A stretch of 64,000 nt of DNA from Escherichia phage vB_EcoM_Goslar: the sequence record NC_048170.1; one strand, given 5' to 3'. Shown piece by piece: positions 961 through 64,000 of the stretch (position 1 is its first letter; each line of letters begins with the position of its first letter). A program made the position numbers and the translations under genes. A model generated the notes under the pieces. It was given only the letters and a program-made list of their open reading frames with translations. It was not told where the DNA came from and did no database searches.

Positions 961-990
961 ATCCTCCCAACCCGTAAGGGAAGGGAGGAT
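961..990. terminator. GC-rich stem-loop between convergent genes
   Basis: atcctccc-aa-ccc GTAA ggg-aa-gggaggat inverted repeat between ORF ends at 940 and 1007. Confidence 0.5.
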
Positions 991-3221: not shown

Positions 3222-3234
3222 ACGGCATAAAAAA
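3222..3234 (-). promoter_or_regulatory. TTTTTTATGCCGT box following a UUCG-loop hairpin
   Basis: minus-strand hairpin ccgatctggc-TTCG-gctggatcgg then TTTTTTATGCCGTCC, about 70 nt upstream of ATG at 3160. Confidence 0.4.
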
Positions 3235-7269: not shown

Positions 7270-7280
7270 ACGGCATAAAA
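7270..7280 (-). promoter_or_regulatory. TTTTATGCCGT box following a UUCG-loop hairpin
   Basis: minus strand: agcctgtcc-TTCG-gggcaggct then TTTTATGCCGTG, 12 nt before ATG at 7257. Confidence 0.45.
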
Positions 7281-14293: not shown

Positions 14294-14398
14294 TGCATTG
14301 CCTTCCGCGAGTGTAATCAGGAAGGTAATGTAGGTTTATTTTAATCTCCATTTCGCGATGATATGACAGTCTTTATTACGTTTACCATCTGAGGGAGC

Positions 14399-15643
14399 AT
14401 GCTCATGTCTTCTATTTTACAGGTGTTTAATGCGCATGCGGAAGGCATTGACATCGACGAGTATTTTGTTAATCAGGTTATCCGTTACGCGACACGCTTC
14501 CGTACGCAAGACCAAGAACACATGCGTTTTTTCGGTGGGGTTCTGTTAGGTGTACAGAAAATCCGATTCACAACAAGACATAACGATACATGGTTTTCAG
14601 ACGTCTTGATGATGGATGAAGAAAGCTTACGACGCGATTTGAGTAAACTACCCTTCTACAATACGCAGACCAACCGTGTTGCCTCAAACGCCTTTAACCT
14701 AAGTTGCTGTTGGTTGCTTTATGCGATCTTCCACAGCAAACAAATCAAAAAAGAAAAGGTTCGTGAAGCCGGGATGCTTGCAGCAATGCAAGTCCTCCAT
14801 TATAAATTCATTTGCGGTCTGGTAGCACGACGTTATCCTTATAACGCTGATCCGGCTATCGCTATTAAAGCGTACGATGAGTTAACCCTCAAATCAGGCA
14901 TCAAGCGCATGAATAGCTGGAATGAGTACATCGACGAACGCTGTAATGCCATCATTGCGCGTAATAGTACACATTTCAGTCGTTGGTCAACCCTGGAACC
15001 TGATAGCGTCGCCGAACGTTTTGTGCGTGATGTGAATACCGGAATCCGTAAGGTTATCAACCGTATCACCGATACGTACTACGCGATGTACGAAGAAGGT
15101 AAGAAGATAGGCACGTCTTCTCAAACTGTAGAGTTAGACGATGGTCTCGCTGTCCGCGATATTAAACGCAACGAAACCACTTATCGTCAATATCTGTTCG
15201 AAATCGCTTATGACCGAACGAGTTTCGTTAAACGCGAACTCATGGTCGTCATCCTTGACGTACACCATACTACCAATCTTTTATCCCTTGAGCGAGCGTT
15301 AAGCTATATCAGCGCTAACGTAGAACGACCGACAAGAGACGGAAAACAGGTCTCTCAGATGTTGCGGCTTGTAATGGAGCATGCTATCGAGTATATCATC
15401 TTGAATAAGGTCGATATGCGCGATCTTACGTTCTTATTCTACATGCGTAACGTGTACACGTCTAACCGCACTAGCAACCCGAAACTGTTAGAACTGCGTA
15501 AAATTGGCTCTGAAGTCATTAAGAAAGCAACCAATGCGAGAAATGACGCTGAGGCTGCGGCGACACGCACCGGTGTCTTTCTGTATATCCTGCTTCGTGT
15601 GTTTAGCCGTAACTATTACGTTCGACGTGCGATGTCACGTTAA
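14399..15643 (+). CDS. hypothetical protein
   Basis: 414-aa ORF. Confidence 0.55.
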   Translation: MLMSSILQVFNAHAEGIDIDEYFVNQVIRYATRFRTQDQEHMRFFGGVLLGVQKIRFTTRHNDTWFSDVLMMDEESLRRDLSKLPFYNTQTNRVASNAFNLSCCWLLYAIFHSKQIKKEKVREAGMLAAMQVLHYKFICGLVARRYPYNADPAIAIKAYDELTLKSGIKRMNSWNEYIDERCNAIIARNSTHFSRWSTLEPDSVAERFVRDVNTGIRKVINRITDTYYAMYEEGKKIGTSSQTVELDDGLAVRDIKRNETTYRQYLFEIAYDRTSFVKRELMVVILDVHHTTNLLSLERALSYISANVERPTRDGKQVSQMLRLVMEHAIEYIILNKVDMRDLTFLFYMRNVYTSNRTSNPKLLELRKIGSEVIKKATNARNDAEAAATRTGVFLYILLRVFSRNYYVRRAMSR

Positions 15644-20252: not shown

Positions 20253-22843
20253 TCACCTTTGATTGTGTAAAACTTCGTGAAGTCCACGCGATCTTTCAAG
20301 AACTCACGACTGACACGTTCTAAGAACCGCAGTTGTTTAACCGTAACTTCGAGCGGCGTCCAACTGTCATGTGGATGAATAGAAACCATACGCCAATCGT
20401 AATTACATAACGCAGGATCGTAGTCATAGAACCATTTATACGGCTCCATGAAATCCATCAGTTTAACGTCCTGCATATCAGGATCGGGATCGATAACACC
20501 ATTGATAAGATCGTACGTTACGGCCATCAGCGTTGGACTGATAAGCTGGTATTTGTTTTCAATCGTTACCGGCGTATCGTACTTCACACGAGGGAAATAC
20601 AAGGACATATAGTCTTCAACGCGTTTATCGGTTTCAAGACTTTTGTCGCGTAGATAATACGTGTCTGTGTTCACGAGACCACGGATAGGGGCAATAACGT
20701 GGTAGATCGCATAAGGCACCCCATCGTTGACTTTGATGTCGGCAGGGTATTGCGTGTCCTCAGCTGTAACCACTTCGCTACGATCGTAAATACGTCCACC
20801 AACCACAATACGAACAACATGATCGTCACGAACATTAAACACATCGTCGTAAGAAAGCTGGTTATGCATCGTCCAACCGGTATCGTAAACGGTTTCACCG
20901 GTTAAGTCCGTACGTGGAAAACCAGTACATCTCACGGTAACCGTGTGCGTGTTCCCTTCACCGAAATACCGTTTCGCGTTGATCACGATCGTTGGCCATT
21001 TTACGATATAATCGATATCGCGTACCAAGCTGTAGCTTTTGGTTGCTTGCTCGTCACCTAACCATACTTCGATTTGACCGGGTTCGAAAGGCAGCGGATA
21101 TTCAACATCAATACCCGTCGTAACATCCAACCATACAGTGTGATTACGATGTTGTATCGTGGTCTTATACGCTAAGAAGTAGGTGTCGAACAATACTAAA
21201 CCGGTTTGCTTTCTTCCATCCAGCGACCATTTTATTACCCCGTTCTCTTCCGTTACCACAGAAGCATCGTCGGTAACATCCTTCCAGGTGTTCGCAACAG
21301 GTTGTCCGTTACGAAGGTTTACGCTATAACAGCGGTAACTCGCCCATTCACGGATTGGGACGTCGGCAACACCCATTACGTAATCAAGCGTTCTCCCACC
21401 AACACCCGATCGACCCTCAACATAGGACGTGGTTTCATATTGCGGATAAAAATGTCGGCCCGCCGGATGTTGCGTGATACCCAATAATAGACCGTCACTG
21501 TCGTACTCAAAGAACGTCGCATTTGCACGCAATCCCCATGGTACTTCAGCAGTAGGTGTACCCATATCGTCAGTAACGCGTTGTGGGCTATCTGCAACCA
21601 GTTTTGCCATCGCGTTATACCCGTAAGCGGAGGTCACCATGTCGATCGTGATATTGCTTTCCTTATTACGCATGATGCGCGTATAATCACTGGCTTCAAG
21701 GGTACGTGCAAAGAACTCAGGTATATTAGCGTTCTGTTCTAACATTGCACCGACGATGACGTCGTCTGGAAGTTTATACAATTCGTGGATGCGGTTATGT
21801 TCGAAGGTTAACTGCGTTTTCAGCCCACTATCGCGGACAACCACTTCCAGGGTTAAATCACGAAGCGATTCTGCTCCATCAACCCGTTCAACGAAGTAGC
21901 TGACATAATCAACAGGAATCCCGTAATCACGATGCGTGAGCATGCGGATACTATTTTCCTGGTTGGTGTGGTAATAACGCCCTTTTCCGTTAGGCCCTTT
22001 CACGTAGATATCAACGTCATCACGATACCGGATTTTAGTATCCGCTTCATCTTTCGGCGGATGAATAAGATACTTCACTTTTTTGTCCAGATCGCTGTTG
22101 TATGTTTTAAGATCTTCTACACGGAAACTATAACGATGAACAACTGTGCCATCATAGATGACCTGAATGCTATCGCCGATCTTAAAACTTGACGGTGGGA
22201 TGTCTTCAACCGCTTCACCATTGATGCTACAGTGCGTCCAACCGATCCCGGTTTCTTGGATCTTTTTACGCCAAGCGTATAGCTGACGCTGCCACTGTAG
22301 AACCTGCGTTGAACTGGTTACAATCCCGCCAAGGACATGCACCTCGCGTCCCGTCGGTTTCGTGTATGACGGATAGCCTTCCGCGAAGTCAGCATTGAGA
22401 TAGGTGCGCCAGTAATAATTGCCAACGCCAAGGTCAGCGATATTCGGTTGGTCGAGCACACAGACCAGCATCGTTTCGTTTTCCAGATTACCCGTCCACG
22501 TTAATGTCAACGGGAATTCTTTACCGTCCTCGGTATAGATATTGTAATACGATCCCTTCACTTCACAGAACTTGCTGAGTTCTCGCCACCATAACCGCCC
22601 AGCCCCGACATTAAAATCCTCCCCCATATGTCGTCCAATAACAAACACATGGAACGTATTCGTATCGTCAGGAAGATTGAATGTACGATGCCAAGCCGTA
22701 AAGTTTTTTACTGCGCCGGTCTTTCCGGTAATACGACGCATCTTGATACGATGCTGGTTGTCCATTAATGGACGGCAGTTCACATTCAGCGCAGCATGAT
22801 TTATCAAGTATTGCGCTGTAGGATTAGAAGCGTTCAACACCAC
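20249..22843 (-). CDS. large putative virion structural protein
   Basis: 864-aa ORF in structural region. Confidence 0.45.
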   Translation of the reverse strand: MVLNASNPTAQYLINHAALNVNCRPLMDNQHRIKMRRITGKTGAVKNFTAWHRTFNLPDDTNTFHVFVIGRHMGEDFNVGAGRLWWRELSKFCEVKGSYYNIYTEDGKEFPLTLTWTGNLENETMLVCVLDQPNIADLGVGNYYWRTYLNADFAEGYPSYTKPTGREVHVLGGIVTSSTQVLQWQRQLYAWRKKIQETGIGWTHCSINGEAVEDIPPSSFKIGDSIQVIYDGTVVHRYSFRVEDLKTYNSDLDKKVKYLIHPPKDEADTKIRYRDDVDIYVKGPNGKGRYYHTNQENSIRMLTHRDYGIPVDYVSYFVERVDGAESLRDLTLEVVVRDSGLKTQLTFEHNRIHELYKLPDDVIVGAMLEQNANIPEFFARTLEASDYTRIMRNKESNITIDMVTSAYGYNAMAKLVADSPQRVTDDMGTPTAEVPWGLRANATFFEYDSDGLLLGITQHPAGRHFYPQYETTSYVEGRSGVGGRTLDYVMGVADVPIREWASYRCYSVNLRNGQPVANTWKDVTDDASVVTEENGVIKWSLDGRKQTGLVLFDTYFLAYKTTIQHRNHTVWLDVTTGIDVEYPLPFEPGQIEVWLGDEQATKSYSLVRDIDYIVKWPTIVINAKRYFGEGNTHTVTVRCTGFPRTDLTGETVYDTGWTMHNQLSYDDVFNVRDDHVVRIVVGGRIYDRSEVVTAEDTQYPADIKVNDGVPYAIYHVIAPIRGLVNTDTYYLRDKSLETDKRVEDYMSLYFPRVKYDTPVTIENKYQLISPTLMAVTYDLINGVIDPDPDMQDVKLMDFMEPYKWFYDYDPALCNYDWRMVSIHPHDSWTPLEVTVKQLRFLERVSREFLKDRVDFTKFYTIKGE

Positions 22844-23771
22844 GGCATGCCTCCAGGAGGTATTTCATGTTGGCTTGGAAATCATTGACATCACGCGCCA
22901 TACGACGCTGATCTGCCATGAGACGAGCCAACACGGTATCACGGTAACCACGATCGTGGTCAGCAGCAGAGCATAAAAGAATAAATGTTGGTGGGTGCTC
23001 TAAAGCAATCCCGGCAACTTCTTTACTATAACCCCCAACCCAACTGTAAGCGGTGATTTCAAACAACAACGCCTGGGTTAACGTGTTCAAACGGGGACTG
23101 ATATTACTTTCTTTTAACGCTGTTACAAAAGCTGCCATGTTAGGGATGTAACCCAGGTTTTCGGTTGCGATACCGATGCTCGCAAAATCGTAACGAAGCG
23201 TTGTCTGGATGGTGCGCACCATAGTTAGTCTTTCATTATTTGTAAGGCTATCTTTAAACAAGCAAAGATAATACCATGCTGTTATGATGGCAACATCACG
23301 ACGTTGTTGAAGGTCCAACCCTAAACGCTGTGTGATTTGTCCGCTAATCCAATCACAAAAGACACGCATCGGGATAGGGCCAAGACGTTCAAAAGGGCGT
23401 GTGCCCAAGGATTCCCATCCTACCTGAAGATACGCACGTGATTGAAGAAAGTTATATTCACGTTCGTTAACAACGGTAGTACGCGATCCTGGGCGTGAAG
23501 TGTCTGTTGGGGTGCGTGCGTAAGCGCGTTGGTCGATAACAACGCGCTGTCCGTCCATCACTGTTTTAATGACCAGCGGATGGCCGAAAGAAGGGATATC
23601 GTCCAACGTATTTTTGTTGCCGATGACTTCGAGAACGGGAGTGTTTACGCCACTTTCTTCACCGGGTGCACTTAACAATCCGCCGACGTAAGCAACTTCG
23701 ATAGCGGTTCGGATACGGTCAATGCCTTTTAGTTTTGTTCCAACAGTTGTGTCGTAAGGAGAGATGAACAT
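22824..23771 (-). CDS. hypothetical protein
   Basis: 315-aa ORF; RBS AAGGA. Confidence 0.5.
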   Translation of the reverse strand: MFISPYDTTVGTKLKGIDRIRTAIEVAYVGGLLSAPGEESGVNTPVLEVIGNKNTLDDIPSFGHPLVIKTVMDGQRVVIDQRAYARTPTDTSRPGSRTTVVNEREYNFLQSRAYLQVGWESLGTRPFERLGPIPMRVFCDWISGQITQRLGLDLQQRRDVAIITAWYYLCLFKDSLTNNERLTMVRTIQTTLRYDFASIGIATENLGYIPNMAAFVTALKESNISPRLNTLTQALLFEITAYSWVGGYSKEVAGIALEHPPTFILLCSAADHDRGYRDTVLARLMADQRRMARDVNDFQANMKYLLEACRGVERF

Positions 23772-23787
23772 ATGTAATTCCTTTATT

Positions 23788-23799
23788 ACGGCATATAAG
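23788..23799 (-). promoter_or_regulatory. TATATGCCGTAAT box (variant of TTTATGCCGT)
   Basis: 17 nt upstream of ATG at 23771. Confidence 0.35.
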
Positions 23800-23914
23800 A
23801 AAACGGGTTAAGCACACAGATTTACGCATAATTGTAATATTTTACGTTATGCCTATGACATTGTGTCACGTGTGCAATTATGTCATACAATTTCCTTAAA
23901 TTAAGGAGAGTTCC

Positions 23915-25987
23915 ATGAGGCTTAAGAATAGCACGCCTCGCGCGATTTTTACGGGCTTTAAAGAGGGTCTTACCACGGATCCGGTTACAGCCCCAGAGAT
24001 CACGCCCATTCACCTCCCGTATGTTTTCATTCAGGGTGGTCGTGGTAAAGAGGACACCTTGCTGTTAACAGGGGACGCCCTGTCTACAGTCTACGGTGAA
24101 GATATGCTGAACTACCGCAGTAAGTACGCTTCTCCAGCAACACTGATTGCTCGTCAGGCTGCTTCTACAGGTAGCGCGATCTTCACAAAACGTTTGGTTG
24201 CGCCGGATGCAACGGCAGCACGCATCCGTATCGGTGTTGAAGTGGTCGCCGATAAACTGGTCGTTTACCAGCGTAACGCTGACGGGTCCTTTGTGAAGGA
24301 CACGCTCGGCAACAAAATCCCTGACGGCGATAAAACCGTTGACGGGTTGAAAATGCGTTGGGTTGTTAACCACGACAAAGATGCCGAAACACCTAATGCT
24401 TTCGGTAAAGATGAAGTGGTTCTCGGACAACTGACTGCAACTGGTGGTGCCCAGAGCAACTACTATCCTATTCTGGATGGATTGGTGAGCTGGCGTGGTG
24501 CTGAAGGGGACAACATCGGCATACGTCTGGAAGCACCGACCGCGCTGAGCAGTAACCCTACCCGTACCGATATTATCGAACGTATCGGTGCTTTCCTGTA
24601 CCGCATTCAGTTCGTGGAACGCAAGTCTTCACGTACTGCGCCGACGGTCATTCGTACGATCAGCGGTATGGAACAAGAAACCTTCGCGTTGCAGGAAGGT
24701 GTTATCCAGCCTGATGACGAAACCGATCTGTCCTTCGGTAAAGTGGTCGTTGACGCCTACGAGTATAATGAGACGGGTAATACCCCGATCTTTGCTCCGA
24801 TGGATCAGATGCATCTTTATCAGAAGAACATCGATGACGTCGTCAAGATGCTGTACGAATCTGAACGCAAAGTTAACAACGATCTGTTAACCGACGTTGA
24901 ATTCGTCGAAGGCCAGATGAACATCTTCACCGGTGTTGATTACAACGGCATCCCGTATCAAACCATCGAAGTTCTCGATGCGGATCAGGGCGGTGCTATC
25001 TTCGACGGTACCAGCACCTTCTACGCGATCGATGGTAGTGACGGTGACGTAAACTGGGATACCTTCGATGCGTTAGCGAAGCAGCAGTTCGAATCGTTCG
25101 GCAACATGGGCGAAGATCTGGAAGACATGGCTTTCTATCCGTTCTCCATCGTGTATGACATTGGTTACAAAGTCGACACGAAGAAAGCGATGGCAAACGT
25201 CTTGTCTCTGCGTCCGGATGTCATGATCATTGCGTCAACCCATACCTGGAAGGGTGTGGAACTGAATGTCGATGAAGAAAGCTCCATGGGCGCAATGCTG
25301 CGTAACTACTACCGTCTGCATCCAGAAAGCGTGCTTTACAATACCCCAGCTTGCCGTGCTGCTGTATTCATGCAATACGGTGAAAGCATCGAAGCGCCAA
25401 GCCTGGGTAAAGTTCCGTTGACGCTGGAAGTTGCTAATAAACTCGCAACTTACATGGGTGCTTCGGATGGTGTTATCCGCGGTACTCGCATCGATAACAA
25501 CCCTGGTAACGTTGTCACAACGATGCGTAAAATCAACAAGACGTATCGTAACGCAACGGTCCGCGATCGTGATTGGGAAAACGGCTTGAACTATGTTCAG
25601 ACCTACAACCGTAATTCCAACTTCTTCCCGGCTTGGGGCACGATCTACAATAACGACCGTTCGGTATGGCGTTCGTTGATCAACGTGATCATCGGTTGCG
25701 ATCTGACGCGTGTCTGCTATCGTCTCTGGGCAGAAACCACCGGTACTACAGGAATGGATGAAACGCTGTTCCTGAAACTGATGGGTGAACGCTTCCTGGA
25801 ATACACCACGGGTCGTTACAACGACCACGTGACTGTTAAGGGACGTTTCTACCTGGATAAAGAAGACGGCTATAACGGCTTCAGCTATCACGGCGATATC
25901 AGCCTGATCGGCGATCCAGGCATGACCGTGGGTACGTTTACCATCACCGGGCTGCGTCGTAACACCGAAGCAGCAGAAGCGGCGTAA
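23915..25987 (+). CDS. major virion structural protein, probably tail sheath
   Basis: 690 aa, strong RBS AAGGAGAG, highly biased codon usage, immediately followed by a 296-aa gene; size/synteny argument only. Confidence 0.5.
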   Translation: MRLKNSTPRAIFTGFKEGLTTDPVTAPEITPIHLPYVFIQGGRGKEDTLLLTGDALSTVYGEDMLNYRSKYASPATLIARQAASTGSAIFTKRLVAPDATAARIRIGVEVVADKLVVYQRNADGSFVKDTLGNKIPDGDKTVDGLKMRWVVNHDKDAETPNAFGKDEVVLGQLTATGGAQSNYYPILDGLVSWRGAEGDNIGIRLEAPTALSSNPTRTDIIERIGAFLYRIQFVERKSSRTAPTVIRTISGMEQETFALQEGVIQPDDETDLSFGKVVVDAYEYNETGNTPIFAPMDQMHLYQKNIDDVVKMLYESERKVNNDLLTDVEFVEGQMNIFTGVDYNGIPYQTIEVLDADQGGAIFDGTSTFYAIDGSDGDVNWDTFDALAKQQFESFGNMGEDLEDMAFYPFSIVYDIGYKVDTKKAMANVLSLRPDVMIIASTHTWKGVELNVDEESSMGAMLRNYYRLHPESVLYNTPACRAAVFMQYGESIEAPSLGKVPLTLEVANKLATYMGASDGVIRGTRIDNNPGNVVTTMRKINKTYRNATVRDRDWENGLNYVQTYNRNSNFFPAWGTIYNNDRSVWRSLINVIIGCDLTRVCYRLWAETTGTTGMDETLFLKLMGERFLEYTTGRYNDHVTVKGRFYLDKEDGYNGFSYHGDISLIGDPGMTVGTFTITGLRRNTEAAEAA

Positions 25988-26002: not shown

Positions 26003-26893
26003 ATGCGTCCTGATAATACCCTACTCGGTGAACAGGGTGTTGGTGCTCTTAGCAACGCGGCTATGGTCGATATTCGTGCAGGTGCCCAAAACGGGTACAT
26101 CAGCAATATCGGTACGTACGTTGCTAACGCCAACTACATTCCGAACCAAATGTTCTGTCTCCTGCTGGAGGCACCACGTGGTTTCAACTATCTACCTAAC
26201 CCGGATGTACAGATTGGTTATCTGAAGGCGCTGGTAGAAGAGGTTGCGCATTCGATTACCGGTCTGCAACGCGGATTGGAAGTTGAATTCGTTAGCGTCC
26301 CGGTTTCTGGTTCCGGTGAAATCCAGGAAGAAGTTTCTGACGTTAAACGTCCTCGCTCTAACCCGACTTTCGGGATCTATGAGAAAGAAGGTCGTTCCGT
26401 TAGTTACTTCCTGGAACAATGGATCACGTATCTGTTGATGGATCCGGATGCCAAATATCCGATGTTGTCGTCTATCGTATCCACCGGTGGTCCAACCGAC
26501 CTGCTGGCGGATTATCGTAGCGCAACAATGCTGTTCGTTGAACCAGACCGTCAACACAAGAAAGTGGTTAACGCCTGGCTGTGCACGAACATGATGCCTC
26601 ACGGTACCGGTGACTGGACATCACGTCGTAACAAGAACGATGCGCCAAACGTGGTAGAATTGAGCATTCAGTTCACAGCGTTAACACAGACCAACTACGG
26701 TGTGCGTGCTTTTGCACAACGTCTGCTGGATAAGATGAACCTGCTCAAAGTGAACCCGGATTTCCGTCCGGCTTATCTGAGCGACATCGATCCTGCTGTG
26801 GCAGCGCAGAAGGTTGGCTATACCTTCGACTTTGATAACAACGATACCTTTGAGGTACCGAATACTTATCAAAACGTAACACCTCGCGTGTAA
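26003..26893 (+). CDS. probable tail tube protein
   Basis: 296 aa, 15 nt after the sheath-like gene, RBS GAGAGGAG. Confidence 0.4.
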   Translation: MRPDNTLLGEQGVGALSNAAMVDIRAGAQNGYISNIGTYVANANYIPNQMFCLLLEAPRGFNYLPNPDVQIGYLKALVEEVAHSITGLQRGLEVEFVSVPVSGSGEIQEEVSDVKRPRSNPTFGIYEKEGRSVSYFLEQWITYLLMDPDAKYPMLSSIVSTGGPTDLLADYRSATMLFVEPDRQHKKVVNAWLCTNMMPHGTGDWTSRRNKNDAPNVVELSIQFTALTQTNYGVRAFAQRLLDKMNLLKVNPDFRPAYLSDIDPAVAAQKVGYTFDFDNNDTFEVPNTYQNVTPRV

Positions 26894-26918
26894 CGTAAAA
26901 AAAAAAAAGCATATTAAC

Positions 26919-28026: not shown

Positions 28027-28506
28027 TCAGTCTTTCAGCAGCTCAGCCGCATACGCGCTGATGTTGTCGCGAATATGCTTAACCTGAGTTGTCGGGAAAG
28101 ATTTCTTATACGCGGTAGTCAGGCGTCCGTAAACCTGTTTCTTCTCGTTAGAGCCGAAACCAACTTCAGCGCTGCGTTGAACCGTTGCAGACACAACGTC
28201 TTTGCCCAGCGGCAGGGTTACAGAAACAACGTCAACCTGTTTGTTATCCGCCATGAACTGCGCGCCAACGCGACCTACCGCCAGACCATGAGCCAGACCG
28301 ATATCGGTGGTCAGTTTCTGTGCTTTTTCCAGGATTTCTTTTTCTTCCGGCGTTACCAGAGTACCCAGGAAATCACTACCTAACTTCTGGCTACCAGATT
28401 CGTCCAGTTTAATACCAGCGGCGATTTTATCAGAAAGAGCCTGAACTTCCGGACGTACGTTAGAAGTGGTTTCAGTCGCTACGGTGGTTTCTACAGCTTC
28501 AGACAT
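28027..28506 (-). CDS. hypothetical protein, probably abundant
   Basis: 159 aa, strongly biased codon usage. Confidence 0.5.
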   Translation of the reverse strand: MSEAVETTVATETTSNVRPEVQALSDKIAAGIKLDESGSQKLGSDFLGTLVTPEEKEILEKAQKLTTDIGLAHGLAVGRVGAQFMADNKQVDVVSVTLPLGKDVVSATVQRSAEVGFGSNEKKQVYGRLTTAYKKSFPTTQVKHIRDNISAYAAELLKD

Positions 28507-28641
28507 GTTAATACTCCAATTAGTTTTTTCGATCGATCAAAAGGATAAAATCAGAAGATTCTTTCTTCATAGGGAAAACACAAGTCGGTTAAGGTTTACT
28601 TCTTAAACTCCTTGCGTTCTATCAGTTAGGTAATATAGACC

Positions 28642-29531: not shown

Positions 29532-29543
29532 ACGGCATAAAAA
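29532..29543 (-). promoter_or_regulatory. TTTTTATGCCGT box following hairpin
   Basis: minus strand: acctccttaccc-acat-gggtaaggaggt then ACTTTTTATGCCGTCA, about 90 nt upstream of ATG at 29442. Confidence 0.4.
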
Positions 29544-33582: not shown

Positions 33583-33815
33583 TACTGCGCTCCCTCCAAC
33601 GCATTACTACCTACGGGTTCTTTGGTTTCCAGACGGCTGTTTAGGCGCGCAGCAACCGCATCTTCCAATCCCAACGGCATAACCTTTTTGTTCACGTCAG
33701 GATCGGCGGCATCATTACCAACGGTTTGACGTACGACCTCAGCAACCAACGTTACCGCGTTCGTCAGCGCAACAAAGCTCGCTGCCCGAGCCGTGTTAAG
33801 TTGTTCTTGGTTCAT
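33582..33815 (-). CDS. small hypothetical protein
   Basis: 77-aa ORF. Confidence 0.4.
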   Translation of the reverse strand: MNQEQLNTARAASFVALTNAVTLVAEVVRQTVGNDAADPDVNKKVMPLGLEDAVAARLNSRLETKEPVGSNALEGAQ

Positions 33816-33916: not shown

Positions 33917-36900
33917 TTATTTGGCGTCGTTAAAATAAATATCAACAGCTCGTTCCGTTGCGTAGAGGAGACCAAGATTCACAGTCCCAACCACTTCCGG
34001 TGAACCGATGATACGGTTAGCGATACTGGTGCCACTGAAGATAGCATCAAGGGTGTGCCCGTCTTCGGTTTTGTTCACACCATGACCCACGGAAGAGACA
34101 ACGGATTTCGCTTGTGCTGCGAAGGTACCTTTATCACCCATCCCCGCACCAAGGTCGTAACGCATGAAAATACGGATGGCGATCTGGTTCTCGCCTAACG
34201 GATTACCGTCTATTCTTACGTTACTGTTGTTGATACGCCCCGTTGTTGCTTCGTTGAGTTTCAGTTCCTTAACGCGTTTAGCTCGTGCTTTATCCGCATC
34301 GCCGACGAGCGCTGCCATGGTTTCACTCATATCCTCAATCTGAGCGCGGTACAATACATCGATCTGTACAACTTCACCATGAACGTCAGCACGTGGGTTA
34401 TACTGACTCATACGCCGTAATGCTTCAACGGCTTCCTGACTCTCATCACTCAGATCGGTCGCAATCGGTTCTTCCAGTGTTGCAAGGATCGTTCGTGGTT
34501 CAACATGATCGCCGATTTTCACGAGACCACGAATGTTGAGATGGGCGTCAACGATGAGTGTACGACTCTTAATCGATGGTGTTACGAGACGATCGGCAAG
34601 ATTGTCGAAGATATACGAACTGTCCTCGTGCGTCTCTGGAATATCCAGAATACCGACAAGAGACAGAACACCTGCGCGCCAAACAACCTGACCTGGGTTC
34701 CACCAATCGCGTTTAAAATAAAGACGATGGAAAACCACCACATCCTGATCCTTAACGCGATCCCCGACTTTATAATCGGTAATGAGATCGTGAGGATAAT
34801 ACTTACCTGGTCCTTTCCCGATTATCGTGCCGAGTTGGAAAACCTCTTCTCCTAACTCTGGATCGTCGTATTGTATCGTAAGCGCAGTTTTGGTGACCTT
34901 CTTAACAACACCATCGCCTTGGGCAGCTGCTGCGAAGAGTTTACCAACACGATGCGCGATGACTGTCTCGCCACCCGTACGCCATGGTTGTACATCGTAA
35001 CCTTCAGCAGCAATCATGCGGTTGTGTTGGATTCCGACAAAAACCAGACGTTTTCCATCGTCACGGTCTACAGCCGGAACAGCTAACGCCGACGTACTCA
35101 TTACCGATGAGATACCATCTGTCTTTTCATCGAATGGTCGTGTTTCACCATACACCGACACGATATTAGCATTAGGTGCAAGGTAAGCAGAGATACCCAC
35201 ATCCCCACTATCTTTCGTACCCTCTGACACAATACCAACATCAGACTTGTCGTATTCACGATCGCGTGCGCGTCGAAGCGATGTCTTTGAACGACCTCCG
35301 ATACCGGTCATCGTTGCTTCTTCACCTTGCTTGATATCCAGCATTGGGTTGGTTTCATCAATGACGATAGAAGCACTGTCGTCAAGGATTTGGTTCCAAA
35401 CGCTCACCGGACTGATTGAGATCTTCTGTCGGTTGCCTTGGCTGCTGTTCTCATTCTGACGAATAGCGCCAACCAGGTCCTTATACACCAATTCAGCGAA
35501 CTTATCGTACGTTTTAAAACGTTGGTAGTTCACATCGTTCGTGTTAGGTGCCCAATCATCCAGAAGCAGTTCAACAGCACGCAGTAGCAACATGGCGAAA
35601 TCAGTAGGTTCTCCCATGTTCTGTAATAGCGTACGGCTTACCGGATCAACGAAAAGACGCTCCATGAGTTCAAGTTCGCGTAAATGGCGAACCTTAAGTC
35701 CAGCACCATCGACAACGTTAAAATAGATATCACGATTGTCAAAAGCGCCGCGAGCGTAACCGATGTAGTTACGGTACTCGTTAAACCCACCCAGCAACAA
35801 CGTCGTCATGCGATCGTCTTTACTGAAAATCAAACTTTCATCGTCAAAGCTCACCGCGAATTCATCTGCTGCTAACCCCATACGAGAACCACGAGGTACC
35901 GTACGATAGTTTGCTTTAAGATGTTCTAATAACGGGGTAAGTCCGCCCAGATAACTTAGAACAACGCCAACCGGAATACGTACACCCATGAATTCAAGAT
36001 CGGCGGCTTCGATCGGCATCTTAGCCGCATTGATACCGAAGAAATCAGGGAACGTCCCTACAGGTGTTGGTGTTTGTCCTGACTGACAGATATAGAGCTG
36101 ATTGCGTTCATCGATCGCTAGGAACTCACCCGATGTGTTACGTGCGAACGTCAGGAGTCCTTCGGCTAACTGTTCGTTGAACCGATCTTCCCCAATGAAC
36201 TCCGGCAATGTTTTTATATCGAGACGTATATCCCAATCAGCAAATTGGATTTGGGTATAGTTGCGTGCAAGCACAGCGAAGTAATACGGGACTTTGACAG
36301 CCGGATCAAAGACGTTACCACGTTTTAACGTTGTTAAGGGTGAGGACTTATCGTAATACATCGCCGTAAGTTGACGTGTTAGCCAACGACCGGCGTTATT
36401 AACGACGCGCTCTGAACGTTTAACAAACACCTTACCGTAGGCGGTACTTAATGCAACTTCGGATGATGATACCTTTCTAATAGGTTTATCAACACGTTGT
36501 TTACGCATCCGGTACTTGATGCCGTTAACAACATAAATGCCATCCTTACGAACCTTCGGCAACATCACCGGGAACGTGGTTGGGACACCGCCTACAGGGG
36601 CCAGTTTAATCGTGATGACTTGATAATCCCCCATCACGTCAACAACATCTTCGACTTTATATCCCGTAACAGGGTAACCTGCTTGCTGTACCGCAACAAC
36701 GGCAGCTGCGATGTCCTTTTGCATTACATGCTCAACGTAATGTTTATCCCACACCGCAAGCGTCGATTTACATAGGCTCTTATCGACGATAACATCCGCT
36801 TCCGGCATAACCTTTGCGGGAGCTAATTTTGCGGCTTTTGGTTTAACTTCAACATACTCGGCAAGCGTGAGTCCAGAACCGTCGGGCGCTTCGATTTCAT

Positions 36901-38263
36901 GAATAGCGTCGGCATTACGCATCGCTGCTTTATATTGGACGCCGCTTAACTGACCCGCATCCGCCAGATCGCTCGCGCGCACCAACACCGCATCCGATAA
37001 CGACTGAATATATTCACCGTGCGTTTTTGGTAACGTTGCCGCGTCAAAGACATCAACCTTTTCTTCTTCGGTATCGTCGGTAACGACTTCGAAGAGATCG
37101 TCGGTAATGTCCTGATCTTCATCGGGTTGGAAATCTGGTTGTACTTCTACCCCGGGTACTTCACGGACATCTTCGAACGCGCGTTCTACAATGGCGTTCC
37201 ACGCATCAGCGTCATCGTCTTCATCCGACCCACCGACCAACTCCGCTTCTAACTCGTCGGGGTCAAGAACAGTGGCCAGATCCTCCCCGTTAGGAAGCAT
37301 GACGTCACGATCATCGTACTCCGCATCCGGGCTGTCCGCAAGAATATCTCGCTCTTGACGAAGAACCTGTTCCTCTTCTTGTTTCTGTTCTTCTTCATTC
37401 GCACTCTGCGACCACAGACGTGTTACCGCCATCATCCAACGACGCTGGAAGGTTTCAAGTGTCGTTTTATCGAGTTCTTCCCCTTCCTTTACAAGTCCGG
37501 TACGCCATTCTTCCAGTAGACCAAGATTCAGCGTAAAGAAGTACACACCGTCTGTAAATACAACGTTAAGCTTATCCAGCGTGGCTCTGTCTAACGAAGC
37601 CATCGTGCTGTTCTCACGATCGACGCCCAGCCAGCGGAAGAAGTCAAAGAACGACAGCTCCTCCGGCGTGGCGAAATTCATGAGGTTGTTACGGGTCGGT
37701 GCCTGTTGCGTGGTACGCATCAACGAAATCTTCGGCAATGTTGACGGTATACGGAACAACAAAAAGTGTTGACGATCGCTTTGCTGTGCGATTTCGTTGG
37801 CTTTCGACCAAATTGTTTTACGCACGTTGAACCATTCATCATACCAACGGGTGAGCGTTGGACGATAGATGTACATGTGGTTAAGATGTGCGTAGTTAGC
37901 AACGATCTGAGCGTTGATGTTTTTCTCCACCGTACTTAGATCGGTAACCAAACGAAAACGACGATGCGATGCACGATAATCCAATTTCGCTCGTGGAAGT
38001 TGGAATCGTTGATCGCGTCGAGGTGCACCCTGTTTGGTTGCGAGATCATCAGCAAACGAAATCCATAGTTGAGCACTTTCTTTACTCAGCATGTATTCGT
38101 TTTCTGGAGGACCTATCAATGAAGGATCCGTTGCGGTGTAATGATAGACAGCATAACGCGGCAGCTGCAATAGCTGCACTAAACGTAATCTCGGTGACAA
38201 TAGCTCTTGGTAGCGTCTGACACCAAACTGTCGGTAGTAATCAAGGTATTTAAGTTTTGCCAT
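33917..38263 (-). CDS. multisubunit RNA polymerase beta-like subunit
   Basis: NPMLDIKQGEEATMTGIGGRSKTSLRRARD...SEGTKDSGDVGISAYLAPNANI resembles beta NPLSEITHKRR..GPGGLTRERAG..ETPEGPNIGLI; GDKGTF...GHGVNKTEDGHTLDAIFSGTSI resembles GDKMAGRHGNKGV block; RBS GGAG. Confidence 0.55.
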   Translation of the reverse strand: MAKLKYLDYYRQFGVRRYQELLSPRLRLVQLLQLPRYAVYHYTATDPSLIGPPENEYMLSKESAQLWISFADDLATKQGAPRRDQRFQLPRAKLDYRASHRRFRLVTDLSTVEKNINAQIVANYAHLNHMYIYRPTLTRWYDEWFNVRKTIWSKANEIAQQSDRQHFLLFRIPSTLPKISLMRTTQQAPTRNNLMNFATPEELSFFDFFRWLGVDRENSTMASLDRATLDKLNVVFTDGVYFFTLNLGLLEEWRTGLVKEGEELDKTTLETFQRRWMMAVTRLWSQSANEEEQKQEEEQVLRQERDILADSPDAEYDDRDVMLPNGEDLATVLDPDELEAELVGGSDEDDDADAWNAIVERAFEDVREVPGVEVQPDFQPDEDQDITDDLFEVVTDDTEEEKVDVFDAATLPKTHGEYIQSLSDAVLVRASDLADAGQLSGVQYKAAMRNADAIHEIEAPDGSGLTLAEYVEVKPKAAKLAPAKVMPEADVIVDKSLCKSTLAVWDKHYVEHVMQKDIAAAVVAVQQAGYPVTGYKVEDVVDVMGDYQVITIKLAPVGGVPTTFPVMLPKVRKDGIYVVNGIKYRMRKQRVDKPIRKVSSSEVALSTAYGKVFVKRSERVVNNAGRWLTRQLTAMYYDKSSPLTTLKRGNVFDPAVKVPYYFAVLARNYTQIQFADWDIRLDIKTLPEFIGEDRFNEQLAEGLLTFARNTSGEFLAIDERNQLYICQSGQTPTPVGTFPDFFGINAAKMPIEAADLEFMGVRIPVGVVLSYLGGLTPLLEHLKANYRTVPRGSRMGLAADEFAVSFDDESLIFSKDDRMTTLLLGGFNEYRNYIGYARGAFDNRDIYFNVVDGAGLKVRHLRELELMERLFVDPVSRTLLQNMGEPTDFAMLLLRAVELLLDDWAPNTNDVNYQRFKTYDKFAELVYKDLVGAIRQNENSSQGNRQKISISPVSVWNQILDDSASIVIDETNPMLDIKQGEEATMTGIGGRSKTSLRRARDREYDKSDVGIVSEGTKDSGDVGISAYLAPNANIVSVYGETRPFDEKTDGISSVMSTSALAVPAVDRDDGKRLVFVGIQHNRMIAAEGYDVQPWRTGGETVIAHRVGKLFAAAAQGDGVVKKVTKTALTIQYDDPELGEEVFQLGTIIGKGPGKYYPHDLITDYKVGDRVKDQDVVVFHRLYFKRDWWNPGQVVWRAGVLSLVGILDIPETHEDSSYIFDNLADRLVTPSIKSRTLIVDAHLNIRGLVKIGDHVEPRTILATLEEPIATDLSDESQEAVEALRRMSQYNPRADVHGEVVQIDVLYRAQIEDMSETMAALVGDADKARAKRVKELKLNEATTGRINNSNVRIDGNPLGENQIAIRIFMRYDLGAGMGDKGTFAAQAKSVVSSVGHGVNKTEDGHTLDAIFSGTSIANRIIGSPEVVGTVNLGLLYATERAVDIYFNDAK

Positions 38264-38446: not shown

Positions 38447-38930
38447 CCTTGTCTTCGCCTCAGGTCGCTACGCTGAGACCGCCTGCATGGATACGTACAT
38501 CACAGGCTGCTTGCACTTTCATGCAAGAGGAGACTATATCAAACCGTCAGCTTCACTTTCTCGATCATATCGAGAATGCGGCGCTGAAGTATTCTTCAGC
38601 AGCACCTGTTACGGTAACCTACACTTCGAAGACGCTTGTCCTCTACAGGGTGGTAAATCCCTTAGTCGTTGAACCTGCGTTGTTTCACATTCTTACAACC
38701 AAGAATGCCGTATTGCTACGCAATAACCAGGCTGCTGATTGCCCATTGTCTCGCACCTTAGCACCGCTTACGCGGCTTTTCTTTCAGCCTAAGCCTCTTA
38801 CGGAGGTAGTGCATCTCAACTGTTGTTTCTGCCTTTCGGCACCTCATGGGTCGTTGAGCTTTAGGGGTTCCCAGCAATTCGTAGGTTTTTCAAGCACTCC
38901 CTTTCAGGAATACCGGACCTTATAGAAAAG
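38447..38930 (-). ncRNA. group I intron catalytic core (3' part of intron)
   Basis: minus strand: AATTGCTGGGAA (38879-38868), AATCAGCAGCC (38740-38730), GTTCAACGACTAAG (38674-38661), GATATAGTCTCC (38540-38529) in P-Q-R-S order; no ORF of 60 codons or more on the coding strand. Confidence 0.6.
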
Positions 38931-40403
38931 CTATTTATTCAAGTATCTGAAATCCCACTTATCCTTACGTCTATTATCGCACTTGATGTCAGGATGTCTA
39001 ACACGGTGTTGAATCGTAGTCGCTGGTAATTGACTCACATTCACAGCCGATTTCGCGCCAAGAACAATTGTTTTTGTGTTGTCCGGACGAGTAACTTCTA
39101 CCGCTCGATGATGTTTACGTAACACATCACGCCAATACTCACGCCGTTCCGGTTCCGCGTATTCGAGCATATAACCGTTGGTATCGACCAGACCGTAACT
39201 CTCGTTTAAACGAGAGGTGGCGGCTGGTCTACTAATACCAATCGCTTTAGCCGCGTCAACCACGGTTTTATACGGGGTCTCATTACCGTCTCTATCTACA
39301 ACCACAATAAAATCTGGACGCGAATCGAGCAGCTGCTGTCTTCGTTCAAGGGCTTGTTGATGAAGCACCTTATTAACATGTTCGAACCCGTAACCTTCTG
39401 GACCGTGCCACCCTGGATTGTTATTCGCTCGATAAAGTATCGTCGCAGATTTCACTCCCGTCTGACGTGACGCCTCGTTCGCACTATGGACAACCGTGGT
39501 AGTGCCATCAGGGTGATATATCCGTATCTGGTTCATTATACCAGAACCAACGAAATTACCATCAGCTGATTTAATGTCCGGCCAGGGTTGTGGATCATCT
39601 TTGAATTTAACCACCCAACGGTTGTTAAACAATTTGACTTTCCGAGCATGTTTACCTAATGTCGTGTCTGTAACACCGGCTACAGCAGAGGCTTGCGCGA
39701 TACTAGGATATTCCGTGACCACATCTTCTTCAGTATCCCAAAGGAGAACCGGTTTGTTATCATCACGTAGTCCGGTCTCAACCGCATGTAGAATATTTCT
39801 AAGGCGGGTTGCCCATTCTAGATTGTCTAACGCGTAATTCCACTTATCGCCATCAAGATGGTTAACGTCCATCCTATCGACATCAGCCGGATAATCTTTC
39901 CACGCTAAGAGCAGACAGCGATGAAGCGATCTTCTCTGGGATTTAAATCGGCAATCATGCTGCATACTAACGAAAACATAGCTATCGTCAACACACCAGT
40001 GAGGACACTGACGGCCAGTAATACGGTTGATGATTCTACCTTTCCGGTTGGCCAAATAACGAGTGTGTCCGGGAATGACACGATAACCTGGGTACTTAGC
40101 GATTTCGTAAGCAGGCTCGAACCGATAGGATAAATTATCAACATCCCAGTTAGATTCGTCACCATCAACAAACATCGCTTTGACGTATTTCTGTGTTTCA
40201 ATATCAACCAGGATGTTTTTGTGTGCGATACAAATCAATGCTGGGATATTGAATTCGCGACCGGCTATGATAACCGTGTCGCCATTTCTCGGTACCTCGA
40301 CGTGGGTATCGCGATACCGTAAGTTTCCATAGCCGTCTATTTCAATCCAGCTTAAAAACGGAATGGGTATAAACTCTTTTTCAGATACTCGCCATTTAAA
40401 CAT
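38931..40403 (-). CDS. HNH homing endonuclease (intron-encoded)
   Basis: HNH motif VNHLDGDKWNYALDNLEWATRLRN; C-terminal repeated DNA-binding-like modules (SIAQASAVAGVTDTTLGKHARK, TVVDAAKAIGISRPAATSRL). Confidence 0.8.
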   Translation of the reverse strand: MFKWRVSEKEFIPIPFLSWIEIDGYGNLRYRDTHVEVPRNGDTVIIAGREFNIPALICIAHKNILVDIETQKYVKAMFVDGDESNWDVDNLSYRFEPAYEIAKYPGYRVIPGHTRYLANRKGRIINRITGRQCPHWCVDDSYVFVSMQHDCRFKSQRRSLHRCLLLAWKDYPADVDRMDVNHLDGDKWNYALDNLEWATRLRNILHAVETGLRDDNKPVLLWDTEEDVVTEYPSIAQASAVAGVTDTTLGKHARKVKLFNNRWVVKFKDDPQPWPDIKSADGNFVGSGIMNQIRIYHPDGTTTVVHSANEASRQTGVKSATILYRANNNPGWHGPEGYGFEHVNKVLHQQALERRQQLLDSRPDFIVVVDRDGNETPYKTVVDAAKAIGISRPAATSRLNESYGLVDTNGYMLEYAEPERREYWRDVLRKHHRAVEVTRPDNTKTIVLGAKSAVNVSQLPATTIQHRVRHPDIKCDNRRKDKWDFRYLNK

Positions 40404-40440: not shown

Positions 40441-40490
40441 TTTAAAAGTTAAATTTGCCAGAAAACTGGCATTTTGTTAGCCTTTCCTTG

Positions 40491-41957
40491 ATCACCGCCA
40501 AGTCCGGCGAGGTATGGCGCAGGGACAATAGTAGTTTCTACGAACGAGGCATTAGGTAACCAGTCGGGGTATTCCCACGCAATAAATCGCTCATCCGTTA
40601 TTGGTTCCCAGTTACTATCAAGTTCAGTTTTCGGTTTTGCTGCAACGGTCGTACGCGCGTAACAGGTTAACGGAATGACGGATTGCATACCCGATACCGG
40701 ATAACGTGTTACCATTGCAGCCAGGTTATTCCAGTATTTATATCCTGCGATATACACTAATTCGGTATACGTGATAGGGTGAACATCTGCACCAGGTTTG
40801 TTAAGCATCTCCGGAGGTAATTCACTCATACCACGGAATAACCGAAACGAATCATTGTTCACATAGACAAGACAAAGATATCGTCCATTAACCATGATAG
40901 GTTCGTTACGCACACCCGGATCGCTTAAGGTGTTCAGTAAGCGTTCTATTCCGTCCCAGGTTGTAAAGTCATCGATGGTGTCTGGATCAAGCGTGACGCG
41001 TTCACGTTCCATCGTTTCGGTATCAATAAGTTCAACTTCTGTAACATCACGGACAAATATTTCCTGCAAAATCCCCGTACGTAATGCATGTTGCGTTACA
41101 GGGAGAGCAGCTTTACTCATCTGGTATAACCCTAACTGAACCGCGGTACAGGAAGGCTGGTTAGGCGACCCTAGTACCTCCGTTGTGGGGTTAATTGCTG
41201 AAATAACGTTACGGGTTGAGTTCCAAACGCGACGTGAACCAAACTTACCTTGGAAGATCCCTTTCTTACCTTGGAACATATCCAACAACAAAGCGTAGAT
41301 ATCGTTAAATGTTCTCTGTAAGCTCCAGCGCTGGCCGTCGTAAACGGGATCAGAATAATCTTTTAATCCATCGGGGACGGTGTTAGAAATTGCAAGGAAA
41401 CGACGATACAACTCTGTAATCTCTTGCTCGCTTTCATACCCGCCTTCTTTTACTTCTATTTCACGTAAGCCTGCAGGCAATACCAGTAAGTGACGGGTCA
41501 TCGCTTTGAACATGTTCTCTTCGACAACTTTAATTCGTAGCTCTCGTTGAGCTGAGCCCGTTGAAACGAACTTGATATCCGCGACGTGTTGTGCAAAGAA
41601 CCCGTATCCTGTTTGTCCTGTTAACGCATCAGACGCAACGAAGTCGCGTTGTTCAGGATCCCAACGAGCGTACGCCTTCCCCGACATGATATCACCATAG
41701 AGGTGTTTTAGTCGAATGAGGCGGTCGTAAATGACAGGGTGCAGGATTTCAACTTTACATTCAATCACCGCAAATCGACGGTCTCGATCTTCACTACCCG
41801 CACTACCAAAGATGGTGTAAGAATAGAAACCATCATCGTGGAAATTACCGGTGCTTGGGTCACGAATGCTCATGCTCGTGATCTTGGGGAGAAAACGTAA
41901 CTGCTGTTTATCGAGGTGTAAAATGCTAATGTTAAACGGCTCTCTGACTTTAGCCAT
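40491..41957 (-). CDS. RNAP beta-prime-like subunit (N-terminal fragment), exon 1
   Basis: RBS GAGGAG before ATG at 41957; blocks LLVLPAGLREIEV, KKGIFQGKFGSRRVWNSTRNVISAINP, RYPVSGMQSVIP align with [41 protein letters not shown]; ORF-track tail past 40491 is intron read-through. Confidence 0.6.
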
Positions 41958-42202
41958 GGAGACACTCCTCTTTACCACCACCGGCTGCGGCGGTATCATC
42001 TGAACACACGAGAGACGTAATGGGTGATGGCGTCACCCATCGCTTCCTTGCTTGAGGCGAGGAAGTTATTAGGTTACGTACCTGCGTGATAAAATCAAGC
42101 AGGCGATGTGTGAAGTTACGCTTCAACATTATCAATGCCGAAGGTAAACTTCGTGCATCACGTTCCAACGTAACATGGGAACGTATCGAACTGGAGGTAT
42201 AC

Positions 42203-51059: not shown

Positions 51060-51076
51060 TATTCACTGCATAAACC

Positions 51077-51108
51077 CCCTCTCCCAACCCGTGAGGGAAG
51101 GGAGAGGG
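51077..51108. terminator. bidirectional terminator hairpin with GTGA tetraloop
   Basis: ccctctccc-aa-ccc GTGA ggg-aa-gggagaggg between convergent genes. Confidence 0.5.
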
Positions 51109-51114
51109 AATATG

Positions 51115-52182: not shown

Positions 52183-52210
52183 CACGTCCTCCTGAAAAAG
52201 AAAAAAGAAA

Positions 52211-52220
52211 TACGGCATAA
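52211..52220 (-). promoter_or_regulatory. TTTATGCCGT box following hairpin
   Basis: minus strand agcctacccac-cattgt-gtgggtaggct then TTTATGCCGTAT, 29 nt upstream of ATG at 52182. Confidence 0.45.
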
Positions 52221-52264
52221 AGCCTACCCACACAATGGTGGGTAGGCTAAGATCAACATCGATG

Positions 52265-63938: not shown

Positions 63939-63980
63939 CCCTCCTCCTTCCCTGATGGGTTGGAGGAGGGTTATGCCGTC
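63939..63980 (+). promoter_or_regulatory. hairpin followed by TTATGCCGTC box
   Basis: ccctcctcc-ttccc-tgat-gggtt-ggaggaggg then TTATGCCGTCAAGC then A16. Confidence 0.4.
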
Positions 63981-64000
63981 AAGCAAAAAAAAAAAAAAAA

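Follow-up and report, generated by a model that had tools for sequence, protein, structure and literature searches.

A conserved region upstream of the tail sheath gene of a phiKZ-like jumbo phage as a probable late promoter with a structured leader

What drives expression of the tail sheath gene in this phage, and what are the inverted repeats in front of that gene? In the 64,000-nt stretch of phage DNA analysed here (the window), the sheath gene is read divergently from a gp28-like gene, and a sequence-only reading had described the region between the two as a divergent control region with an operator-type site. We propose that the right-hand 80 nt of this region are best explained as a late promoter together with the 5' leader of the sheath-tube operon of a phiKZ-like jumbo phage, an explanation to which we assign a probability of roughly 0.55. 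The window instance most likely belongs to a known promoter class, that of the phiKZ-type late promoters.

The intergenic region and its flanking genes

The intergenic region occupies positions 23772-23914, and a coordinate check agreed with the sequence-only reading that 143 nt separate the start codons of two divergent genes, at 23771 on the minus strand and at 23915 on the plus strand. The minus-strand gene (22824-23771) codes for a gp28-like vertex-binding protein (PF25614 PhiKZ_VTX, E=1.7e-88), the N-terminus of which, MFISPYDTTV, is invariant among homologues; the annotated N-terminus of phiKZ gp28 agrees with the one conserved across the family. The plus-strand gene (23915-25987), earlier called sheath-like, is a real tail sheath gene judging from its matches to PF20961 (2.2e-56) and phrog_3242 (5.4e-190) and from the tail tube gene that comes next on the same strand (26003-26893; PF23806, 8.9e-113). 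The window also codes for PhuZ tubulin, a DNA polymerase, a terminase, a head protease and RNA polymerase β-like subunits, the genes of the latter being located at 33917-38263 and 40449-41999 (phrog_3148 and phrog_2986). These β-like genes indicate a split multisubunit RNA polymerase of the phage's own, a feature that goes with the phiKZ class of late promoters. The phage is, by its gene content, a phiKZ-like, nucleus-forming jumbo phage: the tubulin PhuZ is encoded, the RNA polymerase genes are split, and the sheath and tube genes are read divergently from a gp28-like gene. A nucleotide search of GenBank phages gave no match, and the best GenBank protein match of the sheath is ~33% identical at most; in all, the sheath is present in 288 GenBank records. 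Near-identical genomes were found in IMG/VR and in metagenome assemblies, and in a scan of viral contigs with the repeat pattern only two near-identical IMG/VR contigs matched. In the sister clade (L003-L006, below the L003 clade) gp28 is about 60% identical.

The RNA polymerase β-like genes enclose a pair of elements of a different kind. A 490-aa ORF on the minus strand (38931-40403), which matches HNH endonucleases, is directly followed downstream by a group I intron (38510-38938, minus strand; Rfam RF00028, 67.7 bits, E=4.9e-15). The two have the appearance of an intron and a homing endonuclease placed within or next to the RNA polymerase genes of the phage.

The repeats that drew attention to the intergenic region are all in place: TATGACA (23854-23860) and TGTCATA (23881-23887) on the plus strand are the arms of an inverted repeat, the centre of which is the palindrome CACGTG (23867-23872). 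In our repeat search each arm proved to be 8 bp long without a mismatch (TATGACAT, 23854-23861; ATGTCATA, 23880-23887), with 18 nt between the two, and the whole plus-strand feature, made up of the arms, an inner imperfect palindrome and the CACGTG centre, spans 23854-23887. The same search returned TACGCATAA (23823-23831) with TTATGCCTA (23847-23855), CATAATTG (23827-23834) with CAATTATG (23875-23882), AATTGTA (23830-23836) with TACAATT (23886-23892) and, on the plus strand, the perfect palindrome TCCTTAA-A-TTAAGGA (23893-23899/23901-23907). The first three of these additional repeats we took to be clade-specific or due to chance, because their left arms lie at least partly in the left part of the region, which is not conserved in the L003 clade.

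A single 8-bp inverted repeat is no more than chance could give, as one of this size was reached in 11.7% of 2000 dinucleotide shuffles of the region. As a whole, the region contains six 7-mer inverted-repeat pairs versus 0.87 expected (six or more were found in 0.7% of shuffles) and three TATG versus 0.27 expected at the window-wide density. It is conservation, and not repeat statistics, that shows the main feature to be real.

Selection on the right-hand 80 nt and a layout shared by relatives

We aligned the intergenic region in eight genomes and afterwards checked it in twelve. The left part, on the gp28 side, has diverged past reliable alignment between the window clade and the L003 clade. 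The 80-nt block that follows (23832-23911, plus strand), which covers the predicted sheath promoter and leader, is under purifying selection: relative to the L003 clade it carries five substitutions in 80 nt (at 23874, 23880, 23888, 23889 and 23900), which corresponds to about 94% identity. In the same clades the four-fold degenerate sites of the flanking genes are 22-41% identical, that is, saturated, and identity in other intergenic regions is 39-59%. Within about 10 kb, the 60-nt window with the highest conservation falls inside the block, and synonymous differences reappear within the first ten sheath codons, right past the ATG. Since the neighbouring sites are saturated and synonymous changes resume past the ATG, the block has been kept by selection and not by recent transfer. 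The repeats, whose conservation in relatives the sequence-only reading had named as a point to check, are strongly conserved between the two clades, and the proposal of a divergent control region upstream of the sheath gene holds, with the repeats under strong selection.

The three TATG of the plus strand differ in their history. The one at 23854 is invariant in all 12 related genomes, the one at 23848 is AATG in the L001 subclade, and the one at 23879 is TGTG in the L003 clade. The second of them is a part of TTATGCC (23847-23853, at -10 to -4 of the predicted start), which had been counted among "TTATGCC variants on both strands". This plus-strand copy is present and polymorphic: it reads TAATGCC in the near-identical genomes L001, L011 and L013, matching the (T)AAT that most relatives carry at about this position, and thus it is not a repeated operator half-site. 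The minus-strand variants are TTATGCG (23831 to 23825) and TATGCCGT (23795 to 23788), and the latter is a motif in its own right, to which we return below.

The divergent arrangement of gp28 and sheath genes is kept in 16 of 16 GenBank relatives and in 24 of 27 distant metagenomic relatives, in which gp28 is 22-32% identical in tblastn, and a layout of four parts recurs between the two genes. It starts with an A/T-rich stretch, often containing (T)AAT, usually 2-3 nt before TATG; next comes TATG itself, with A as the following base except in a few lineages that have G or T; then a short palindrome, the sequence of which varies between lineages; and finally a box, yATAnnAT(T/C). In the window the box is CATACAATT (23884-23892, plus strand; AATTGTATG when read on the minus strand), so that the right arm TGTCATA consists of the end of the palindrome and the CATA that opens the box. 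The layout reads GTAATATTTTACGCTAATGAC-TATGACGTGCGGCAGCCTTGTCGCATGAC-CATACCATT in the metagenomic lineage L017, TATGGCACTGCTAG...CTAATAGTGAAC-CATACCATT in Erwinia phage RAY, TATGTGACAGTG...CACTGTAC...-CATACGATT in Pseudomonas phage EL and TATGATTGACTGTTAGTTAACACT-CATAACATC in phiKZ.

To count such sites we used a composite pattern of TATG and box, a regular expression that was set on the metagenomic loci and the lower spacing bound of which was later relaxed from 18 to 14 nt. The pattern is present in 10 of the 16 GenBank phages, which were fetched after it had been defined. When each of 32 lineages was represented by one member, it was found on the sheath strand in 20 of the 32 intergenic regions, versus 0.65 in shuffles, and on the other strand in three. 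In the 64-kb window it occurs once, at the sheath locus. Among the selected sites the gap between TATG and box ranges from 17 to 47 nt, with hairpin potential kept. A family-wide module of hairpin plus box appears to be undescribed in the literature that we searched.

The same comparison bears on two further explanations of the block. The first is coding: a small upstream ORF or leader peptide could run from ATG 23849 to TAA 23897-23899 (MPMTLCHVCNYVIQFP) or in an overlapping frame that ends with TAA 23902-23904. In its favour, no stop codon interrupts the frame that begins with ATG in either clade, the second frame would make two of the five substitutions synonymous, and for L003 a 32-aa ORF was called at this place in the source record. 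We nevertheless regard this explanation as very improbable, because all changes in the ATG frame are non-synonymous, the second frame has an upstream in-frame TAA and neither an ATG nor a ribosome-binding site in the window, and neither frame is kept in the distant relatives that retain the layout; the five substitutions are themselves too few for a decision.

The second is a host sigma-70 promoter with TACAAT of the box as its -10 and GTGTCA as its -35 element, which we consider, taken together with the possibility of a chance repeat without function, the least credible of all the readings discussed here. One match, GTGTCA-17-TACAAT, agrees with the consensus at 9 of 12 positions, the variants of the box in the family fit TAnnAT, and phiKZ has TTGACT-15-TAACAT. 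A 9/12 match is at the chance level (0.7 expected per region), phiKZ has no mapped start downstream of its box, and it was shown that phiKZ development is independent of the host RNA polymerase (PMC4666361, PMC7598289). A repeat without function is excluded by the conservation described above.

A predicted late start and a probable structured leader

The late promoters of phiKZ have the consensus T(-3)ATG(+1), each base of which is needed by the purified non-virion RNA polymerase in vitro (PMC4666361), and TATG is bound as single-stranded non-template DNA in a pocket of a β-like subunit (PMC12809450). Other determinants, mainly downstream, are also required, and in these a consensus is not recognisable (PMC4666361, PMC7598289, PMC7618050). 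phiKZ carries the same divergent gp28/gp29 pair, and in the ONT-cappable-seq table for this phage the late promoter P010, with a start at 20273(+) and an upstream sequence ending in ...TTAATATCTATGA, heads transcription unit TU014 and the units of the sheath gene PHIKZ029. We count the G of the P010 TATG at 20272, which is within the stated 2-nt resolution of the method.

TATGA at 23854-23858 is the positional counterpart of P010. In both phages gp28 is divergent from the sheath and tube genes, the distance from the T of TATG to the sheath ATG is 61 nt in the window and 67 nt in phiKZ, an A/T-rich stretch with AAT stands upstream, and a CATAnnAT box follows, in P010 20-30 nt downstream. The TATG at 23854-23857 is thus found upstream of a structural gene at a place that matches a mapped late start, and it is invariant in 12 genomes; the start itself is, in this phage, predicted from sequence. 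The two loci differ in that the sequence around the core is unrelated, the start is mapped in phiKZ and predicted here, and the palindrome of the window clade is longer, richer in G+C and centred on CACGTG.

By the phiKZ rule, the non-virion multisubunit RNA polymerase of the phage would start transcription at G23857 of TATGACA, reading the four TATG bases in the single-stranded non-template strand. The A/T-rich stretch upstream (GTAATATTTTAC ... TTAT/TAAT) would be a part of the same promoter. Its quasi-palindrome GTAATATTTTAC (23834-23845) is a candidate upstream element: as GTAATATTTTACG (23834-23846) it is also present upstream of a matching TATGAC in L017, the gp28 of which is only 28% identical. 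GTAATATTTTAC is similar to two phiKZ motifs, the early CTATATTAC and the middle AAanTTACc.

Two other places in the window carry related sequences. A second TATGACA, followed by TTTATTACG, is found at 14362-14398 (plus strand), 37 nt upstream of a structural-type gene (14399-15643); it is like the sheath promoter core and is without the box. CTATATTAC itself is found in an intergenic region at 28629-28637 (minus strand), upstream of the ORF at 28027-28506, and is a candidate early promoter of the virion polymerase, because published early promoters of phiKZ have the same sequence as their core (...gatCTATATTACtaa...).

Because the first ~30 nt transcribed from G23857 are palindromic, the sheath mRNA would begin with a 5'-terminal stem-loop, and the inverted repeat noticed at first would then be the outer stem of this structure plus the TAT just before +1. 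In the RNAalifold consensus, 23855-23861 pair with 23880-23886 and 23862-23865 with 23873-23876. A comparison of the stem between the window and L003 clades gave no compensatory double change and just two one-sided compatible changes, the two stem substitutions of the L003 clade (U-A to U-G and U-G to U-A), both of which keep the pairing. The window's own hairpin is thermodynamically ordinary, with z of about +0.5 for the interval from +1 to the box and of -0.6 to -1.1 for longer segments, and in the phiKZ group the hairpin is weak, AU-rich and without covariation.

The potential to form a hairpin becomes apparent across lineages. When the interval from +1 to the box was compared with dinucleotide shuffles over 20 lineages, the mean z was -1.68 and the Stouffer Z was -7.5, and in 18 of the 20 the stem starts no more than about six nt from +1. 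Folding is better on the sense than on the antisense strand in 16 of the 20 lineages (Wilcoxon p=0.012), with Stouffer Z of -6.6 for the sense strand versus -3.7 for the antisense strand. The stem pairs differ between lineages and yet remain complementary, the third transcribed base, for instance, being in a C-G, U-A or G-C pair; this comparison was made by eye, since MAFFT failed to register the right arms of the hairpins. The covariance models R1 and R2 recovered only the subgroup L018/L020/L024/L027/L029, with weak matches to L017 and to Erwinia phage pEa_SNUABM_54, and the hairpins are too short and diverse for one covariance model. An Rfam covariance-model search of 23700-24000 gave no match up to E=10. 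The preference for the sense strand together with the kept pairing points to a structure in single-stranded sense nucleic acid, which may be RNA or possibly the non-template DNA strand.

These observations bear on the proposed operator-type site, in which a probably dimeric regulator would bind TATGACA-N20-TGTCATA or CACGTG and control one or both promoters. Such a site would be in agreement with the near-complete conservation, palindrome centre included, in two clades with saturated synonymous sites, with the enrichment of the region in inverted repeats, and with the overlap with the predicted start, where a repressor would act. It would also resemble operators of the lambda/LexA type, which place an inverted repeat over a start site between divergent genes. 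Here, however, conservation of the feature is confined to the window and L003 clades, and elsewhere the sequence and length of the inner palindrome and the spacing of the arms vary, so that a constant half-site spacing is lacking. No second copy and no other match with three or fewer mismatches was found in the 64-kb window, which thus shows no regulon of such sites; the folds favour the sense strand, G-U pairs numbering 26 in the sense folds versus 15 in the antisense ones; and the arms themselves are the TATG core, which in phiKZ is a mapped late start, and the beginning of the box. We therefore consider an operator improbable.

If the sheath mRNA starts at G23857, two more elements would follow the stem-loop: the conserved box (CAUACAAUU in the transcript), which would be single-stranded, and a second hairpin pairing the ribosome-binding site. 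The palindrome TCCTTAA-A-TTAAGGA (23893-23907, plus strand) is predicted to form an RNA hairpin that pairs the Shine-Dalgarno sequence AGGAG (23904-23908), and its sole substitution, found in the L001 and L003 clades, is at the central unpaired base 23900. The leader would determine how stable this very abundant late mRNA is and how well it is translated, and the ill-defined "downstream determinant" of such promoters may correspond to a part of the leader.

5'-terminal stem-loops of the ompA type stabilise bacterial and phage mRNAs, and membership in this class needs structure only. The predicted sheath leader is like them in that, in 18 of 20 lineages, a hairpin starts within about six nt of the predicted 5' end of what would be a very abundant late mRNA; it differs in that within the clade conservation extends to loop bases and flanks and in that the hairpin is followed by a conserved box, which would be single-stranded. 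Conservation of the loop bases is as strong as that of the stem in the window clade, which means that sequence as well as structure is under selection and that a stability hairpin alone is an insufficient explanation. The box, too, needs an explanation of its own, because its ATA and ATT would be unpairable in RNA that starts at G23857.

A conserved small RNA derived from a 5' UTR was described upstream of the tail gene gp182 in phiKZ and gp277 in 201phi2-1 (PMC11512511). That RNA is likewise the leader of a late tail gene, with sequence and predicted fold conserved across giant-phage genera; it belongs to another gene and ends at a premature terminator, giving a short RNA (PMC11512511). On the sheath strand past the hairpin we found no terminator-like stem with a T-run. 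A hairpin with a box as a feature of late promoters in general was rejected: both hairpin and box are missing from P119L, the reference late promoter of phiKZ, which means that the element is not general to late promoters, and the window TATGCCGT sites are also without such a hairpin.

The minus strand and the meaning of the sheath module

The right arm and the box raise the possibility of a promoter facing the other way. Read on the minus strand, they give AATTGTATG-AC, which could be a mirrored TATG-type promoter directed toward the gp28-like gene; the repeat would then be two opposite-strand copies of an extended core, and the palindrome would give both mRNAs a 5' hairpin. Such a face-to-face pair could coexist with the late promoter and leader of the sheath operon. 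On the minus strand the box reads AAT-N2-TAT-R, like the plus-strand (T)AAT-N2/3-TATG and like several published phiKZ late promoters, among them ...AATTCTATG and ...AATCTTATG, and it is this reading of the conserved box that keeps the model alive. In addition, TATGACAT is identical on both strands of the window. In the L003 clade, which is without TATGCCGT at this place, the right arm is the sole intergenic minus-strand TATG besides one that overlaps with the start codon. The distance from the sheath TATG to the gp28 start is ~15 nt in SPN3US-like phages, so that any gp28 promoter there must be located to the right of this TATG.

Against this, the minus-strand reading is TATA and not TATG in seven of 20 representatives, while phiKZ needs every base of TATG in vitro, and the hairpins fold better on the sheath strand. 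The phiKZ ONT-cappable-seq data contain no minus-strand start near 20293 and place the gp28-side starts at 20123 and 21311. The first of these, the late start P009 at 20123(-), lies 84 nt inside the annotated gp28 ORF, and the second, at 21311(-), antisense within the sheath gene, begins the sole unit in the phiKZ table that covers the entire gp28. Finally, gp28 in the window clade is already preceded by a TATGCCGT, 24 nt from its start. On this evidence we hold a face-to-face pair to be unlikely, though less so than an operator.

The TATGCCGT copy in question (23788-23795, minus strand) is 24 nt upstream of the start codon of the gp28-like gene, and the start predicted from it would be G 23792. 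The sequence-only reading was right in singling out the TATGCC type of motif, which behaves like a promoter core. TATGCCGT is found seven times in the window versus 2.25 expected, a number reached in 0 of 100 shuffles, and six of the seven copies are intergenic, most of them directly behind terminator hairpins and aimed at the next gene. TATGCCGT may well represent a second class of promoters that is common in this phage, and the gp28-like gene most likely has its own TATGCCGT promoter at 23795-23788. This copy is kept in the L001 subclade and absent from the L003 clade; at the L003 locus one TATGCCGT is present behind the tube gene, in the same arrangement.

The other TATGCCGT copies in the window are located at 3222-3229, 7270-7277, 29532-29539, 52212-52219 (minus strand), 63972-63979 (plus strand) and 33674-33681 (minus strand), and the usual form of the junction, stem-TTT(T)ATGCCGT, amounts to a terminator-promoter junction motif. 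From the copy at 52219 it follows that the GTG called as the start of the ORF at 51115-52233 lies too far upstream. A further repeat, CCAACCCGTnAGGGAAGGGAG, occurs at 967-987 (plus strand), 51084-51104 (plus strand) and 63943-63963 (minus strand), each time inside a G+C-rich hairpin downstream of genes (3 matches versus 0 expected), and two gaps between convergent genes, 941-1006 and 51060-51114, contain it. It may be a family of terminator sequences, similar to the conserved terminator motifs reported for phiKZ and 201phi2-1. Homopolymer A runs are found in intergenic regions at 26897-26909 (13 bases), just past the tube gene, and at 63986-64000 (at least 15 bases), just past a TATGCCGT site; 16 of the 17 A7/T7 runs in the window are non-coding.

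The four bases TATG are the sole defined signal of phiKZ-like late promoters, and the region described here is a natural test case for what else such promoters may contain. The sheath promoter and leader are extremely conserved, and the upstream (T)AAT, TATG, palindrome and mirrored box recur in many genera, the cultured relatives with this layout including phiKZ, EL and RAY. If the ordinary reading alone is true, the region is a late promoter with a structured leader. It is possible, and in our estimate somewhat doubtful, that the succession of TATG, hairpin and yATAnnATT is an undescribed cis-element present in much of the phiKZ-like jumbo-phage family, which would be either a mirrored promoter pair around a palindrome or a signal in the leader RNA or the non-template strand that provides the determinant so far undefined in promoter studies of the phiKZ non-virion polymerase. 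The window also provides two signatures for the annotation of this lineage of jumbo phages, namely TATGCCGT directly behind terminators and the sheath module.
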